Below are positions 56,148 to 62,243 of a stretch of 64,000 bases of DNA, one piece after another. The stretch spans positions 81,216-145,215 of the forward strand of contig JBASTP010000002.1 of NCBI GenBank assembly GCA_049274945.1, written 5' to 3'. The stretch's first letter is position 1, and every line of letters starts with the position of its first letter. The DNA is from Patescibacteria group bacterium. GTDB lineage: Bacteria > Patescibacteriota > UBA1384 > GWA2-35-9 > JBASTP01. A program made the position numbers and the translations under genes. The notes under the pieces are model-generated. The model was not told the origin of the DNA, searched no databases, and saw nothing but the letters and a program-made list of their open reading frames with translations.

Positions 56148-56419
56148 AAAGGTGGGTTGCTCTCTCTCGGAATGAATCCCAGAGTTGGAACAGGTAAGCA
56201 TTTGACCGATTAGTACGCCTTGGCTCAAACCCTTGCGGGTCTTCCACCTAGCGCCTATCAAGGTCGTGGTCTTCGACCGGTCTATAACGAAGTCTAATCT
56301 TGGGGAGGGCTTCTCGCTTAGATGCTTTCAGCGATTATCCCGCCCGAGCATAGCTACCCAGCACTGCCCTTGGTAGGACAACTGGTACACCAGAGGCTCG
56401 GCTCCTCCGGTCCTCTCGT

Positions 56420-57165
56420 CACGTACTCTTCTATCACTAGAAGCGTAGACTATATCTTCACCCACCTTAGGCGGGGCCGGCATATTAGCTGCCTTTCGGC
56501 AACTCTCAAGCAGATGCTTTCAGTCGTTACGGGGTCAAGCCTAAAACCTCATATAATTCGTCTTTGGTTTTCTTTCTTCGAGTGACGTAGTTTTGCTGCT
56601 GCACACTCAGTATTAAATCAACCAGGTATCTCTTCTCTCTAGGAATCAAACGCAATTCACCTTTTTGAGAGAGTAGTATTGCTGCCTTGTAGATGGCTCT
56701 CGCCTGGATTTTTTTGAAACGGATATATGGCAATAATTTTTTAAGAATTCGTGCCACCTGTTGAAAACCATTAATCCGTAATTCAGTAATACCATCATTT
56801 CGGCGCGAGATATATCCGATCTTGATCCTTTTCTGAATCCACATTAACGGTTGTTCATGACGGCTATCTTGGTAAAAACAGATCGTAACCATGAATCTGT
56901 GACCAAGATTGCCATCTTTCCGTTTCTTGACTTGAAGCATTAAGCTCCCGTCACCATCAAGAAAACCAGCAATATATGCAAAATGAGTTGTAGACTGACT
57001 TCCCACGGTATTGTCTTAACTGGTTTGTGGTCCTCAAGTTAATTGTCTCACAATTTGCTGACCGAAGCAAACTGCCTGCAATGCACTAACCACTATTCCA
57101 ATTAAGATTCCACCGTTATAAGCCGGATTGTCATGCTCGATTGCTCGAACAAGTAGCAATTATTT
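56420..57165 (-). mobile_element. Group I intron D inserted inside the sarcin-ricin loop (between CCUAGU and ACGAGAGG, near E. coli U2656/A2657); carries a LAGLIDADG ORF
   Basis: Exon junction restores CTAGT|ACGAGAGGACCGG. Intron ends ...GATATAGTCTACGC...GTACGTG (terminal G), with P7-like GACTAT/ATAGTC pairing. Confidence 0.65.
56527..57006 (-). CDS. LAGLIDADG homing endonuclease (single motif, 159 aa) within intron D
   Basis: HFAYIAGFLDGDGSLML... Confidence 0.8.
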   Translation of the reverse strand: MGSQSTTHFAYIAGFLDGDGSLMLQVKKRKDGNLGHRFMVTICFYQDSRHEQPLMWIQKRIKIGYISRRNDGITELRINGFQQVARILKKLLPYIRFKKIQARAIYKAAILLSQKGELRLIPREKRYLVDLILSVQQQNYVTRRKKTKDELYEVLGLTP

Positions 57166-57216
57166 ACTAGGAGGGGAACCCCTCAGACTTCAACGCCCAC
57201 AGCAGATGAGGACCGA

Positions 57217-57564
57217 CAGTCTGTTGCTTGATAACCACATCCATAACCGAAATGTATCTGTGGCGCCCAGCACCTTTTGAATAAAAGGTACTGGATCTGC
57301 ATGTCGCCATGCAGCTCGGACTATATCTTCCTCGCCTTTTCAGGCGGGTCTAGCGTATAGTCTCTGAGGATTTCTGCATTACTGCAGATCTTTCCTGCTG
57401 ATTGTCTCCGTAGGTACAGCACCGTATGGCGCGTACCGTAGTCCAACCGGTTGCCCGTTGGAATTTTAGAGAGTTTCCAGCATATAGTCCCGACGGCCTT
57501 ACGGTGTCGGGATCCCGATCTCTTTCGAGCATCGGGACTAAATTTTGAGACAGCAAGGTTGTTT
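57217..57564 (-). mobile_element. Group I intron C, ORF-less (348 nt), inserted at GAGACAGU|UCGGUCC (peptidyl-transferase-centre A2602 region, near L2593-2604)
   Basis: Exons rejoin as ...GTCGCAAGACAGT|TCGGTCCTCATCTGCTGTGGGCG. P7-like GGGACTATATG ... GATATAGTCCG. Terminal G. Confidence 0.6.
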
Positions 57565-58555: not shown

Positions 58556-59062
58556 CGACATTTCTATCGAGGTGCCAAACCGGGCCGTCGATATGGACTC
58601 TTGGGCCCGATCAGCCTGTTATCCCCGGGGTAGCTTTTATCCGTTGAGCTCTAGCAGTCTCGTACCTGACTAGAGGATCACTAACTCCGCCTTTCGGCAC
58701 TGCGCGGCTTGTTTGCCTTGCAGTTAAGCTGGCATATGGGTTTGCCCTATCATCTGGATTTCCATCCCAGACTAGCCAACCTTTGAACTCCTCCGTTACC
58801 TTTTGGGAGGACGCCGCCCCAGCGAAACTACCCACCAACCACTGTTCCCCAACAAACGTCGGGGTTAGAATTTCCAATCGTCGAGAGGGGTTTTTCATGG
58901 TCGCCCTTGCGGGCTCCCCCATCACTACACACGAACAATCAAAAACTCAATGGCAAGCTGTAGTAAAGCTCCACGGGGTCTTTCCGTCTTGCTGCGGGTA
59001 CAGCGCATCTTCACGCTGATTGTAATTTCACCGGGTCCCTGGTTGAGACAGTTTCCAGACCG

Positions 59063-59647
59063 TTATGCCATTCGTGCGGGTCGGAACTTCGTGTTCACCC
59101 CACTATTACTAGTGGCACTGACTATATCTTTCAAGATAGAACGATATTTACGATTTCCACTGTTCATCTGATTAGCTAGCTGCTCAATCTTCGCCAAACC
59201 ATGTTCATTTATATGTTCGTGATTTAGCATTAAACTACAGATTTCCTTGAATAGTAGAAAGTCTCGTTGTTTCTCGGATTGTAATGGAAACTGATCGAAA
59301 AACGGGATAATTCTTTCCATTAAATCTTTTAGCGATCTTACTTCATACTTCAATGTTTTATCAGAATAATCAGGGCGGATTGAACCGCATCCAAAATGTT
59401 TCTGCATCTGAAATAATACGTTTGCTCGATCACTATTTTGACTTACCGAGAAACTCGGTCTCACTTCCCATCCAGTCTTAATTGATGCCCGAGGATTAAA
59501 TGAAACACAGAAACATCCTTCGCCATCAACATATCCCGAGATGTAAAATGAGAAATCTCGTTGTGATATTGTTCTATTTTGAGTCGGCGTATTAGTTATC
59601 ATTTTGATAACTCTCGGCCCGAAGGCCTCAGTCGATACGGGGTCCAA
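59063..59647 (-). CDS. LAGLIDADG homing endonuclease (194 aa) of intron A; its last 9 codons read across the 3' splice site into the 23S exon
   Basis: YISGYVDGEGCFCV motif. C-terminal ...VNTKFRPARMA* is encoded by the exon sequence AAGTTCCGACCCGCACGAATGGCATAA. Confidence 0.8.
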   Translation of the reverse strand: MDPVSTEAFGPRVIKMITNTPTQNRTISQRDFSFYISGYVDGEGCFCVSFNPRASIKTGWEVRPSFSVSQNSDRANVLFQMQKHFGCGSIRPDYSDKTLKYEVRSLKDLMERIIPFFDQFPLQSEKQRDFLLFKEICSLMLNHEHINEHGLAKIEQLANQMNSGNRKYRSILKDIVSATSNSGVNTKFRPARMA

Positions 59648-59757
59648 CTGTAGTGGACTTCCCTCGGTATTACCCTTCTTAATTATATCAAGAATAGGGC
59701 TTCACCGATATTAGCCGACAAGGGCAAGCGGATCTCGGCCGCACGCCGGATCCTTGT
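59090..59757 (-). mobile_element. Group I intron A inserted at CUUGUCGGGU|AAGUUCCGACC (near L1951); carries a LAGLIDADG ORF
   Basis: Exon 1 ends ...GGTAGCGAAATTCCTTGTCGGGT. Intron ends ...GATATAGTCAGTGCC...GAACACG. Exon resumes AAGTTCCGACCCGCACGAATGG. Confidence 0.7.
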
Positions 59758-62243
59758 ACCCGACAAGGAATTTCGCTACCATCGAACGGTTCATGTATGT
59801 TAACTCATGGTCTCCCATGAGATCGGACTATATCATCTCCAATGGTGGAGTCTGGCGTATAGTCTCTGAGGGTTCCCATCCCATGGGATGGGCCTTCCCT
59901 GCTGATTGTCTCCGTAGTCCAACCGCTTGCGCGTTGGAATTTTAGAGAGTTTCCAGCATATAGCCAGATTTTTGTTATCGATAACTACTAACCTTAATAG
60001 TTACCGCTGCCGTTCACTCGCGCTTAGGTTTGGAGCTCATGCACAGCTTGCGCCATGCAATCACCCCGCCCCGTAACGTACGAGCACTGGGCAGGCATCA
60101 CTCCGTATACGTCCCTCAAAGGGTTCTGCACGGAGCTAAGTTTTTGTTAAACAGTCGCCTGGAACTCGTTTGCTGCGATCCCGACTTTACGTCGGGACAG
60201 GGCATATCCCTAAGTTACGCCCGATTTTTTGCCGAGTTCCTTAACCAGGGTTTTCCCGATCACCTGAGGCTACTCGCCTCGTCCACCGGAGGCGGTTTGC
60301 GGTACGGTTACCAACTGTAGTGGCCTGCCACTTTTCTAGACGCCCGCTCCCCCAGACGCTACGTAGCCGTAGCAACATCTGAGCTTGCAAACGTGTCATG
60401 ACAGGATAGTCTATTGGTAGTGCCGGAATATTGACCGGCTGTCCTTCTCTTTTGTACAAAAATTAGGACCGACTAACCCCCCGCCGATTGCCGTTGCGGA
60501 GGAAACCTTGGACATGCGGTGGCCTGATTTTTCATCAGGCTAATACGTTACTCATGCCGGCATTCTCACTCCCATACGCTCCAGGGTCGCTTACGCTTCC
60601 CCTTCACTGCAAATGGGACGCTCCCCTACCACGCCGATGCATAGCATCGACATCCGTAGCTTCGGTAAAGGCCTTAAGCCCCGTTGAATTTTCGGCGCAA
60701 TCCACCAATCGGCCAGTGAGCTGTTACGCTATCTTTGAAGGATGGCTGCTTCTAAGCCAACCTCCTGGCTGTCTGGGGTGAATTACTTCCTTCTCCACTG
60801 AGGCCTTATTTAGGGACCTTAGCTGACGGTCTGGGTTGTTTCCCTTTTGACTCGTGAAGCTTAGCCCTCACGGTCTGACTAGCCGCCTCAAACCCTCGGC
60901 ATTCGGAGTTTGGTTGGATTTGACACCCGAAGGTGCCAAAATCCATTCAGTGCTCTACCTCCGAGGATGTAGCGGCCGCTATACCTATGCATATTTCGGG
61001 GAGAACCAGCTATCTCCGGGTTCGCTTGGCATATTACCCCTATCCCCAAGTCATCCCCTAGTTTTGCCACACTAGTGGGTTCGGACCTCCCCCCGACTTT
61101 CATCGGGGTTCATCCTGCTCAGGGATAGATCACCCGGTTTCGGGTCTATCCGATCGGACTCATCGCCCTATTAGGACTCGCTTTCGCTGCGGCTCGTCGC
61201 CTGAGGCGACTTAACCTTGCCCGAGCGGATAACTCGCCGGCTCATTCTTCAAAAGGCACGCCGTCACCCCGCCAAAGGCGGGGCTCCGACTCCTTGTAAG
61301 CACATGGTTTCAGGTACTATTTCACTCCCCTACCCGGGGTACTTTTCACCTTTCCCTCACGGTACTAGTTCACTATCGGTCGGAAAGCATATTTAGCCTT
61401 AGGAGACGATCCTCCCATATTCTTCCCACTGGATTTCACGTGTCCAATGGTACTTTTCTTTGGCACTAGGCCAAAGGATCAATCACGGAGCACGACACAG
61501 TTTTGGCTACGGGGCTATTACCCGCTCTGGCCGGCCTTTCCAGACTCGTTCGCCTACCATGTTATGGCGCTTTCGATCGAGGCTCTTCCCGTTTCGCTCG
61601 CCACTACTCCGGGAATCGCAAAAGAACATTAAAGTTGACAAACGGCTGACTATAATTCAGCCGTCCACCAGCTCGAATACTCTCTTTCCCCCTAACGGGG
61701 GATGTTGCTTTCTTGTCCTCTGCTTACTGAGATGTTTCAGTTCGGCAGGTGCCCAATCCCGATATAATCGGGATTAACGCGTCTTCCACGCGCTGGGTTG
61801 CCCCATTCGGAGATCCCCGGATCAATGCTTCGTTGCCAGCTCCCCGAGGCTTATCGCAGGCTCGTACGTCCTTCTTCGGTGCTTTCCGCCAAGGCATCCA
61901 CCATGTGCCCTTATTCGCTTACCTGTTCCGACTCTGAGAGTAATCTGAGGGCGAAACCCTCGGTTTCTCCCTCAGCGCTCGCGTCGGCAAAGCCGACCCC
62001 GATGCAAAATCGGGGCTTCGCGCTCGCTGCTCCCTCTTCCGCTGTAAAAGCATTGAGGAAACGAGATTACTTTTCGGAACTTGTTACTTTTTGTTCAAGT
62101 TCAGGGTTTAAAAAAGTCCGCTCCAGGCGGACTCATTGCAATGAACTACCTAAAACATAGCCTTAGTTCATTGGAACCAGTCCTCCTGGGAAATAGCTAG
62201 TTGTTGGCGGGTAACCATATGTTGTTTTGTCTGAACCAACCCT

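Follow-up and report, generated by a model that had tools for sequence, protein, structure and literature searches.

A Patescibacteria 23S rRNA gene split by five group I introns

Can a 23S rRNA gene that is interrupted at functionally critical, universally conserved positions give a normal ribosomal RNA? The question is raised by a locus on the minus strand of the 64-kb stretch of DNA analysed here (the window). All the features described below are located on this strand.

The 23S–5S locus and its insertions

According to the Rfam profile search, a complete bacterial LSU rRNA gene, exons and five introns together (56199–61924; RF02541, 1816 bits), is followed on its 3' side by a 5S rRNA gene (56019–56135; RF00001, 87.5 bits), which confirms the 23S–5S arrangement given in a preliminary description of this DNA. 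The extended helix-1 pairing of the 23S ends reaches out to 61933 and 56190. The same search detected no SSU rRNA anywhere in the 64-kb window, so that the earlier statement of no 16S in the window holds. The host is a bacterium of the Patescibacteria (CPR), known as a metagenome-assembled genome (MAG). The GlyRS of the window shows 100% identity to a protein labelled 'Patescibacteria group bacterium', and its next relatives belong to Paceibacterota/Parcubacteria. The 23S–5S pair is a single-transcript rRNA locus of this uncultured bacterium.

A TTGACA-17-GATAAT motif (62244–62272; 11 of 12 positions match) is indeed present about 320 nt upstream of the 23S gene. Its assignment as the operon's own promoter is doubtful: five promoter-like sites were counted in the region, compared with 6.9 ± 2.8 in shuffled sequence, i.e. 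there is no excess. Folding gives a hairpin with a U-run (62133–62110), which separates the motif from the start of the 23S gene.

The 23S gene was aligned to E. coli rrlH. Five insertions were found, directly after U1917, U1951, U2504, U2604 and U2656 of the E. coli sequence. These sites correspond to the H69 loop (L1917), H71 (L1951), the peptidyl-transferase centre (L2504), the A2602 region (L2604) and the sarcin-ricin loop (L2656), and all five are functionally critical, universally conserved positions. Below, a slash marks the splice site. Intron A (59090–59757, 668 nt, GGGU/AAGU, L1951), intron C (57217–57564, 348 nt, GACAGU/UCGG, L2604, ORF-less) and intron D (56420–57165, 746 nt, CCUAGU/ACGAGAGG, L2656) had been placed exactly. 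For intron B (57665–58565, 901 nt, CUCGAU/GUCGG, L2504), the site and the end at 57665 were correct, but the 5' end is 10 nt away from the 58555 first proposed. Four introns had been counted, one of them ORF-less. The overlooked fifth, intron E (59792–59996, 205 nt, UAACUAU/AACC, L1917), gives the top Rfam group I match in the window. As intron E is also ORF-less, the ORF-less introns number two (L1917 and L2604), and the shortest exon has 34 nt. This micro-exon (59758–59791) corresponds to E. coli 1918–1951 (BLAST HSP 1918–1952, 88.6% identity). The 51-nt exon (57166–57216, E. coli 2605–2656; BLAST HSP and global alignment) is real, but it is not the shortest.

The spliced 23S rRNA would be about 2852 nt long. 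The exons show 74% identity to rrlH over the aligned columns (BLAST and global alignment), and the differences include an 85-nt insertion and a shortened region of E. coli 1405–1597 (Rfam, BLAST). In the alignment, all the universal 23S motifs tested are intact once the introns are removed in silico.

Group I fold of the introns

At the alignment junctions, the nucleotide before every intron is an exon U and the last intron nucleotide is G; this rule, noted before for four introns, extends to all five. The U·G pair of P1 at the splice site is present in 5/5 introns. The P7 pairing of GACTAT with ATAGTC had been ascribed to all; GACUAU is the 5' strand of P7 in the L1917 and L2604 introns, but the other three have CGACUG. 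No convincing P10 candidate was found for any of the five.

The Rfam/Infernal check proposed earlier gave RF00028 scores above the gathering score of 50 for two introns, E (83.9 bits) and C (52.7 bits). In the RF00028 alignment of intron E, the exon U is located opposite G in P1. In intron C, P1 was identified by inspection as AGACAGU paired with GCUGUCU, with U·G at the splice site. The cores of introns C and E, aligned to each other, are close relatives.

Introns A, B and D show one common architecture by threading, including a core with P7.1/P7.2. We call them IA-like, a label that is drawn from architecture alone, without a subgroup-specific model. Their helices are fully paired save P8 of intron A (11/12 pairs); in intron A, P1, P3–P9.0 and P9 each show 3–6 of 3–6 pairs. 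P1 of introns B and D has 4 bp only. RF00028 gives 22 and 20.8 bits for A and D, under the gathering score, and no match to intron B at E ≤ 1. The helices of intron B were threaded on the group I architecture as a single sequence; ORF-less relatives of this intron are located at L2504 in two other CPR genomes. According to the single-sequence threading and the shared junction motifs, the fold of A and B is modelled as that of a group I ribozyme.

Intron D had been placed inside the sarcin-ricin loop, with an alignment artefact named as a possible objection. The local Rfam LSU model (positions 2653–2912 at 56435–56199) is confident exactly from ACGAGAGGACC (56419), and the junction after U2656 stands. 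An L2656 pattern scan over species-representative genomes gave at least 120 matches. At least 101 further genomes, all species representatives, share the intron D junctions (CCTAGT/AA..TTGCTAC), and nearly all of them are labelled Patescibacteria. Among the matches listed, the intron lengths are bimodal (279–440 nt and 735–890 nt). Using 20 ORF-less relatives as the covariation sample, RNAalifold recovered P2, P3, P4, P5, P6, P8 and P9, with compensatory changes in 33 of the 48 pairs. In this sample 96.3% of the cells are paired, compared with 35–41% in slid controls, and none of 500 shuffles reached this value. P9.0 has all its pairs in 67 of 102 L2656 introns (shuffles: mean 33, maximum 43). 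The L2656 introns share a complete group I core, with P9.0 beside the terminal G, and the covariation is strong. For the group I fold there are three kinds of evidence: Rfam scores (introns C and E), covariation across a family with more than 100 members (intron D) and threading (introns A and B).

Endonuclease genes

The three distinct LAGLIDADG ORFs described for introns A, B and D were all recovered, as Pfam LAGLIDADG_1, LAGLIDADG_2 and LAGLIDADG_1, respectively, over the curated cut-offs. The ORFs are apparently intact. Their genes are located in the P8 loop of intron A and the P6 loop of intron B, and fill the P6 loop of intron D. Of the families suggested for comparison (I-CreI/I-CeuI/I-CpaI), I-CreI is among the relatives of the intron D product; the products of A and B go to I-OnuI/I-SmaMI and I-SceI, respectively. 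Protein identity between these ORFs and enzymes of known structure is low (single chains, E 1e-9 to 1e-15).

The ORF of intron A (59063–59602, 179 aa; PF00961, E 2.6e-25) starts at an ATG in the P7.2 loop and runs through P3', P8, P7' and P9. Its stop codon is located 27 nt into the 3' exon, with none inside the intron, and the alignment to homologues elsewhere ends around residues 154–166. Its PDB relatives are I-SmaMI/I-OnuI-type half-sites.

The ORF of intron B (57817–58449, 210 aa; PF03161, E 1.1e-41) has two motifs, LLGDG and YMDDG. The nearest solved structure is I-SceI (E 2e-15), the LAGLIDADG_2 enzyme of the yeast mitochondrial LSU omega intron. PF03161 is matched over the full length, and the two LAGLIDADG-type motifs are as expected for a monomeric enzyme. 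In contrast to I-SceI, this putative enzyme is encoded in a bacterial 23S gene at L2504 and would have another target sequence.

The ORF of intron D (56527–57006, 159 aa; PF00961, E 5e-10) has a single motif, and the enzyme is presumably homodimeric. Its GUG start is located within the P4/P6 strand ACCGUGGGAAGUC, with no obvious ribosome-binding site before it, and its UAA stop within J6/7 (CCCCGUAACGACU). Full-length homologues with 59–67% identity are found in L2656 introns of other genomes, and for 79 loci the alignment is longer than 100 aa. The PDB relatives, to which the enzyme is most similar, are I-MsoI, I-CvuI and I-CreI, single-motif enzymes of L2593 introns. The cyanobacterial and chloroplast L2593 introns (PMC1995217; Synechococcus) share with A, B and D a short or absent P2, an extension of about 40–75 nt from P7 to P3' with two hairpins (P7.1/P7.2), and an endonuclease ORF overlapping core helices; the sites here are L1951, L2504 and L2656 instead.

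Probable splicing, and comparison with known introns

We consider, with a probability of about 0.87, that the five group I introns of this CPR 23S–5S locus are spliced to rebuild a normal 23S rRNA. Judging from the sequence, each intron would act as a group I ribozyme, whose internal guide pairs with the last 4–7 exon nucleotides and places the exon U opposite G in P1. External guanosine would attack the 5' splice site, and then the terminal intron G, set by the 3-bp P9.0, would dock for exon ligation. Five such reactions would give an ordinary 23S rRNA of about 2.85 kb. The 34- and 51-nt exons should be no obstacle, because each ribozyme would use few exon nucleotides. The predicted LAGLIDADG enzymes may cleave 23S alleles that lack the introns, at the corresponding sites, and the introns would then spread by homing; the intron D enzyme would have the pseudo-palindromic target UCCU-AGU/ACGAG-AGGA.

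Some or all of the insertions may instead escape ligation, being excised to leave a fragmented 23S rRNA, as for RNase III-processed intervening sequences, or being retained in the mature rRNA, as for the unspliced Simkania L1931 intron. The poor or absent RF00028 scores of A, B and D are in line with this, and a CPR survey (PMC11270868) refers to known cases of 23S rRNA in fragments and to one bacterial group I intron that stays unspliced. We regard it as unlikely. A break or a 200–900-nt insert in the H69 loop, the peptidyl-transferase centre or the 12-nt sarcin-ricin loop is hard to square with function. The exon U, terminal G and P1 U·G pair are common to all five introns, the L2656 covariation includes P9.0 next to the terminal G, and the same survey reports CPR insertions as missing from transcripts.

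It is very improbable that the locus is a decaying, non-functional copy used by mobile introns as an insertion target, with an intact copy elsewhere feeding the ribosome. The visible 64 kb of the genome leaves room for such a copy, 16S is unlinked to 23S, and the 85-nt insertion and shortened region might be read as decay. The tested universal motifs are intact, however, the Rfam score reaches 1816 bits despite the introns, and the 23S ends form a processing stem followed by a normal 5S gene. In addition, CPR bacteria usually have one rRNA copy, often with reduced rRNA regions, and insertions in 82% of 23S genes (PMC11270868). The least probable explanation, which we give hardly any weight, is an assembly artefact fusing exons and intron pieces of different community members. 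The source is a MAG, chimeras arise easily when rRNA regions are assembled, and a core is repeated in introns E and C. Against this, two independent per-run Logan assemblies show 100% identity to the window, one over 58600–57698, crossing the intron B 5' junction, and the other over 56337–54381 (23S 3' end, 5S and ABC genes). The same L2656 junctions are also present in over 100 other genomes (at least 101 among the matches listed).

The spliced gene that we favour has a close parallel in Coxiella burnetii, in which two group I introns of the 23S gene are separated by a 34-bp exon (Raghavan et al., 2007, by its title as given in PMC11270868). The endonuclease-bearing intron is located at L1951 (720 nt, 157-aa LAGLIDADG; Haugen et al., 2007, PMC1995217). 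The window gene likewise has an exon of 34 nt flanked by two group I introns, the one at L1951 carrying a LAGLIDADG gene, and in both organisms the genome is reduced and has a single rRNA locus. We take the second Coxiella intron to be at L1917. The window gene has three introns more (L2504, L2604 and L2656).

Multi-intron 23S genes were already said to be known in CPR, and the survey agrees (Tsurumaki et al., 2024, J Bacteriol, PMC11270868). According to it, 82% of CPR 23S genes carry insertions (up to 16 per gene), which are reported to be removed from transcripts, and Brown et al. (2015) is cited for such rRNA-gene insertions. Frequent LAGLIDADG_1 sites are 1917, 1931, 1952, 2593, 2604 and 2657. 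Site 2504/2505 is not named in the examined text, and the 23S gene of this MAG is apparently not described there. The sarcin-ricin-loop intron and micro-exon had been called less commonly described; this does not hold, as the L2656 junctions recur in at least 101 genomes, site 2657 is catalogued, and Coxiella has its 34-bp exon. The multi-intron pattern, sarcin-ricin-loop intron included, is already catalogued as common in CPR, and the gene is genuine but ordinary. The gene and the surveyed CPR insertions agree in lineage, in the kind of element (group I introns that either have a single-domain LAGLIDADG gene or are ORF-less), in the crowding in the 23S 3' half around the peptidyl-transferase centre and in sites 1917, 1952, 2604 and 2657, and nothing essential differs. 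ORF-bearing and ORF-less forms at one site are found alike in those CPR introns and in our L2656 sample.

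Five insertions in the 23S rRNA gene

Rfam detected one bacterial LSU rRNA in the 64-kb window, on the minus strand (1816 bits), together with a 5S rRNA at 56135-56019 (minus strand) and four tRNAs. No SSU rRNA was found by Rfam within the whole 64 kb, as the preliminary description had noted for 16S. The global Rfam alignment of the LSU rRNA ended at 58515. This end is an artefact of the insertions, and the region was therefore aligned to the E. coli rrlH locus (L001). According to short-word BLAST, eight colinear blocks are present, with five large window-side insertions between them. 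The junctions were fixed by global alignment of the in-silico spliced gene against E. coli rrlH.

All five insertions are read on the minus strand and are numbered by the E. coli 23S rRNA. Intron E (59996-59792, 205 nt) is located after U1917, intron A (59757-59090, 668 nt) after U1951, intron B (58565-57665, 901 nt) after U2504, intron C (57564-57217, 348 nt) after U2604, and intron D (57165-56420, 746 nt) after U2656. In every case the upstream exon ends in U and the insertion ends in G. The joined flanks (junction as a slash) are UAACUAU/AACC for intron E, GGGU/AAGUUCCGACC for A, CACCUCGAU/GUCGGCUC for B, GACAGU/UCGGUCC for C and CCUAGU/ACGAGAGGACCGG for D. In this order, they are universal motifs that belong to H69 and H71, to the peptidyl-transferase centre, to the region around A2602 and to the sarcin-ricin loop. 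The short ligated-junction strings obtained in silico are UAACUAU-AACC, GGGU-AAGU, CUCGAU-GUCGG, GACAGU-UCGG and CCUAGU-ACGAGAGG. The spliced 23S rRNA is 2852 nt, and its identity to E. coli is 74% over the aligned columns. For the 3' junction of intron D, the local Rfam LSU model run on 56150-57230 turns confident exactly at ACGAGAGGACC, and the covariance model thus leaves the sarcin-ricin-loop junction in place.

The four introns described previously (A to D) are all real according to the E. coli alignment and the junctions. Their coordinates were exact for three, whereas intron B begins at 58565 and not at 58555. The count of four should be raised to five, because the L1917 intron had been missed, though it is the top Rfam group I match in the window (83.9 bits). 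Two introns, those at L1917 and L2604, carry no ORF, where one had been reported. The 51-nt exon described previously is longer than the micro-exon between introns E and A (59791-59758), which is 34 nt and the shortest of the gene.

Two other size differences were observed in the gene. An 85-nt insertion (61618-61703, minus strand) is located in a small-hairpin loop at Rfam LSU model positions ~228-231; two stable hairpins are predicted in it (z -4.68), and either an expansion segment or an intervening sequence of the RNase III type may be present here. The counterpart of E. coli 23S 1405-1597 is only ~110 nt long (60309-60419, minus strand) and unalignable. Reduced rRNA regions are on record for CPR, and this shortening agrees with them.

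Group I cores and the intron family at L2656

For intron E, Rfam aligns the U at the 5' splice site opposite a G, as a P1 pair. P1 helices of 4-5 bp with the U.G pair were obtained by threading for introns A, B and D, and by inspection for intron C, in which AGACAGU is paired to GCUGUCU. The Rfam gathering score is passed by introns E (83.9 bits) and C (52.7 bits). Introns A (22 bits) and D (20.8 bits) are under the threshold, and intron B gave no Rfam group I match at E<=1. The Rfam alignment of intron D is meaningful only for J8/7, P7' and P9. Because these scores are weak or absent, relatives of introns A, B and D were sought.

One genome per species (GTDB representatives) was scanned with the pattern ATAGTC-N10-40-GACGAGAGGACCGG, which describes a P7 3' strand and, downstream of it, a G that borders immediately on the 3' half of the sarcin-ricin loop. 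At least 120 matches were found; a few oddly spaced ones, in genomes such as those of Streptomyces and Geothrix, were ascribed to chance. The 5' junction CCTAGT/AA..TTGCTACTT is common to at least 101 matches. The genome scan independently confirms that the L2656 site is common. An intron in the sarcin-ricin loop had been thought less commonly described, but the same junctions recur in these matches, and position 2657 is named as a frequent CPR site by Tsurumaki et al. (2024; PMC11270868). Among the matches listed, the introns fall into two length classes, of 279-440 nt and 735-890 nt.

Twenty short ORF-less members of the L2656 family, including one mis-extracted sequence (L057), were aligned. 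RNAalifold on this alignment alone finds P2, P3, P4, P5, P6, P8 and P9, and 33 of the 48 pairs show compensatory changes. The P7 pseudoknot is invariant in the family and was added to the RNAalifold pairs before pairs were counted. Standard pairs occupy 96.3% of the cells, compared with 35-41% when the partners are slid by 1-3 columns, and the observed pairing was reached by none of 500 shuffles. P9.0, a pairing between the triplet that follows ATAGTCN and the triplet that precedes the terminal G, is complete in 67 of 102 introns, in 19 combinations; in shuffles the mean was 33 and the highest count 43. A 3-bp P9.0 helix is the element predicted to set the 3' splice site in this family. The ORF-less L2656 introns of four loci (L010, L035, L061 and L083) showed no RF00028 match at the gathering threshold. 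As covariation shows a complete core where RF00028 is silent, the general Rfam model under-detects the family.

The window copy of intron D has all helices fully paired when threaded. Introns A and B fit the same architecture (P1 with U.G, P3-P9, P7.1/P7.2 and P9.0), according to threading on single sequences, which is weaker than covariation. They also share the junction sequences (G)GCUNAUAUCGGUG...GGGUAAUACCGAGGGAAGU, ...CCCCGUAnCGACUG, ...ACGCCGA... and ...GAUAUAGUC with the family. The P7 5' strand (CGACU) and the P3 3' strand (ACGCCG) of the family are ~40-75 nt apart, and the same spacing is present in introns A, B and D; this region aligns poorly and forms two hairpins in the window copies. 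A P7.1/P7.2 extension is typical of IA-type introns, and introns A, B and D would be IA-like by architecture alone. The same feature is reported for cyanobacterial L2593 introns (Haugen et al., PMC1995217). ORF-less relatives of intron B were found at L2504 in a Gottesmanbacteria MAG (L079) and a Campbellbacteria MAG (L028), whereas 2504/2505 is not among the sites named in the accessible part of PMC11270868.

The P3-P5 cores of the ORF-less introns E and C (59896-59967 and 57383-57483, minus strand) are ~97% identical and share an exact 29-mer. The core gave no BLAST match in 120 genome loci, and the 29-mer was found in seven JGI metagenome contigs (L124-L130), within L1931 introns in six and an L2262 intron in one. 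One ribozyme module is thus present in at least four different 23S sites (L1917, L2604, L1931 and L2262).

A group I catalytic core is therefore present in the insertions, according to Rfam for E and C, covariation for the L2656 family and, less strongly, threading for A and B. Intervening sequences processed by RNase III are short stem-loops at the tip of a variable helix, which they replace, and are cut out with no rejoining of the ends. These five do not fit that description, as each has a group I core and is inserted at a universally conserved position that is single-stranded or in a loop. A recent intragenic duplication was considered for the near identity of E and C, but it was rejected, since their core is a widely shared, highly conserved module that does not point to such an event here. 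The mosaic could also have been produced by a chimeric assembly. Two independent per-run Logan assemblies are 100% identical to the window, one spanning the exon-intron B junction and the other the 23S 3' end, the 5S and the ABC genes; this argues against a chimera.

CPR-type L2656 introns were also observed on MAG contigs labelled Nanoarchaeota, Undinarchaeota, Planctomycetia, Mycoplasmatales, Pseudomonadales or Gammaproteobacteria (L080, L114, L116, L064 and L031, also L045, L073, L083, L089, L103 and L106). The LSU is bacterial-type in the five contigs checked, and L2656 introns outside bacteria were rejected. The simpler reading is that such contigs are probably mis-binned or mislabelled Patescibacteria.

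Endonuclease genes

Three distinct LAGLIDADG ORFs had been described, and Pfam matches above the cut-offs support all three; the motifs were read from the translations. The intron D ORF (159 aa) belongs to LAGLIDADG_1 (PF00961) and has one motif, FLDGDGS. Its closest solved relatives are I-MsoI, I-CvuI and I-CreI. The intron B ORF (210 aa) belongs to LAGLIDADG_2 (PF03161), has two motifs, LLGDGT and YMDDGN, and is related to I-SceI. The intron A ORF (179 aa from the ATG at 59602) is again LAGLIDADG_1 (PF00961) with one motif, YVDGEGC; among solved structures it is closest to one half of enzymes of the I-SmaMI/I-OnuI type and to small archaeal and bacterial homodimers. Each product is a predicted LAGLIDADG protein with an acidic motif-end residue, encoded inside a putative self-splicing intron. 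LAGLIDADG enzymes of this kind would spread their introns by homing, cutting intron-less alleles. Cleavage of an intron-less allele was assayed for another CPR enzyme, I-ShaI at 23IS7 (PMC11270868).

The intron D ORF fills the P6 loop; its start codon, GUG, falls within the conserved strand ACCGUGGGAAGUC, and it is closed by a UAA in the invariant CCCCGUAACGACU. Full-length homologues with 59-67% identity are present in the L2656 introns of other genomes, and among the matches listed the ORF was aligned over >100 aa in at least 79 loci. The full-length homologues at L2656 indicate a site-specific, apparently intact lineage. The target of the enzyme is likely to be UCCU-AGU/ACGAG-AGGA. This predicted target is pseudo-palindromic because it encodes the H95 stem, and it would suit a homodimeric enzyme. 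In the literature, we found no biochemical characterisation of an enzyme with sarcin-ricin-loop DNA specificity. As the predicted target is conserved in nearly all life, the enzyme may be of interest as a meganuclease scaffold. We consider it unlikely that the L2656, L1951 and L2504 introns constitute a Patescibacteria-specific IA-like lineage in which the homodimeric enzyme of intron D recognises the nearly universal sarcin-ricin DNA.

The intron A ORF starts in the P7.2 loop and runs through P3', the whole P8 loop, P7' and P9. No stop is present within the intron, and the stop is located 27 nt into the 3' exon (59063-59089, minus strand). Thus, the frame is complete only on the unspliced precursor. 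The homologues align only to about residue 154-166, so read-through is the probable origin of the C-terminal tail. Bacterial rRNA introns with an ORF overlapping the core helices are known (PMC1995217).

Comparison with CPR 23S genes and the surrounding region

The window GlyRS is 100% identical to NCBI 'MAG: glycine--tRNA ligase [Patescibacteria group bacterium]', and the next matches are Paceibacterota and Parcubacteria proteins. The remaining window is an ordinary bacterial chromosome with PBPs, MurD, RecJ and ArgRS. Multi-intron 23S genes had been said to be known in CPR; according to Tsurumaki et al. (2024; PMC11270868), 82% of 348 CPR 23S genes have insertions, up to 16 per gene. According to the same text, 45% of these insertions match the Rfam group I model, 14 sites are recurrent, and the group I sites are concentrated around the peptidyl-transferase centre. 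LAGLIDADG_1 genes predominate at 1917, 1931, 1952, 2593, 2604 and 2657, and ORF-containing and ORF-less versions alternate at one site. Four of the five window introns (1917, 1951/1952, 2604 and 2656/2657) occupy frequent CPR sites named there (the 23IS6-14 set). A literature search gave nothing relevant that names introns L2656, L2504 or L2604. The gene is ordinary for its lineage, since intron insertion of this kind, and the sites concerned, had been described in CPR bacteria before.

Recurring sites in the 120 loci examined were L2500, L1931, L2593, L2262 and L1917, by BLAST chaining that is approximate and misses micro-exons. In a regex site survey of the same loci, the motifs were too strict for CPR variation and most loci were scored as 'unknown'; no frequencies were drawn. 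The arrangement with the 34-nt exon gave only two regex matches among the other loci. In Coxiella, the second intron presumably sits at L1917. The HEG-bearing Coxiella intron is located at L1951 (Haugen et al., PMC1995217), and the title of Raghavan et al. (2007), cited in PMC11270868, reports for Coxiella burnetii two 23S group I introns separated by a 34-bp exon.

Each intron would most likely self-splice by the two-step guanosine-initiated route, with P1 using 4-7 nt of the upstream exon. As such a short stretch is sufficient, exons of 34 and 51 nt would be tolerated. All five sites are essential and one rRNA copy is normal in CPR, so efficient splicing would be required. CPR insertions are stated to be removed from transcripts in PMC11270868, citing Brown et al. 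(2015). A bolder and unlikely reading is that five obligatory splicing events, in H69, the peptidyl-transferase centre and the sarcin-ricin loop, give slow-growing symbionts a checkpoint at which ribosome production is regulated. The gene is a textbook case of the extent to which introns can colonise a single-copy bacterial rRNA gene, with five ribozymes in the most conserved parts of the ribosome and exons down to 34 nt. Its value is mainly as correction and calibration. Such introns are under-called both by annotation pipelines and by the group I model of Rfam: the global LSU alignment stopped at 58515, and of the five introns three did not reach the threshold, so CPR 23S genes are easily mis-annotated.

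The gene upstream of the 23S on the same strand is a mechanosensitive-channel-like ORF, and 16S is not immediately upstream (~2 kb visible). Exact matching of the upstream membrane protein (two starts) or GlyRS found no contig, and the ABC ATPase and the intron B ORF gave only short Logan contigs; the absence of 16S thus holds for the window. The promoter attributed to the 23S gene, TTGACA-17-GATAAT, is indeed present (62272-62244, minus strand, 11 of 12 positions matched), but such motifs are no commoner in the region than in shuffled sequence. A hairpin, AGUCCGC-CUGGA-GCGGACU, with a U-run (62133-62110) is located between the motif and the 23S 5' end, and a long alternative hairpin competes with it (z -2.67). 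Thus, the motif may act on something other than the 23S gene, or attenuation may take place in the leader. The segment 62106-62272 (minus strand) gave no Rfam match at E<=1; its features may represent an attenuator, a small RNA or the terminator of the gene upstream. The segment also contains a Shine-Dalgarno-like AGGAGGA and, after it, AUG AAC UAA (62171-62163).

On the downstream side, 33 nt separate the 5S end from the start codon (ATG) of a same-strand gene for an ABC-transporter ATPase (55986-56019, minus strand). No terminator-like site was seen between them, and the rRNA and transporter genes may be co-transcribed. Two small overlapping ORFs of 89 and 130 aa were observed at 53742-54400 (minus strand); judging by sequence, their predicted products resemble an antitoxin of the AbrB/SpoVT type and a VapC-like toxin with a PIN domain.
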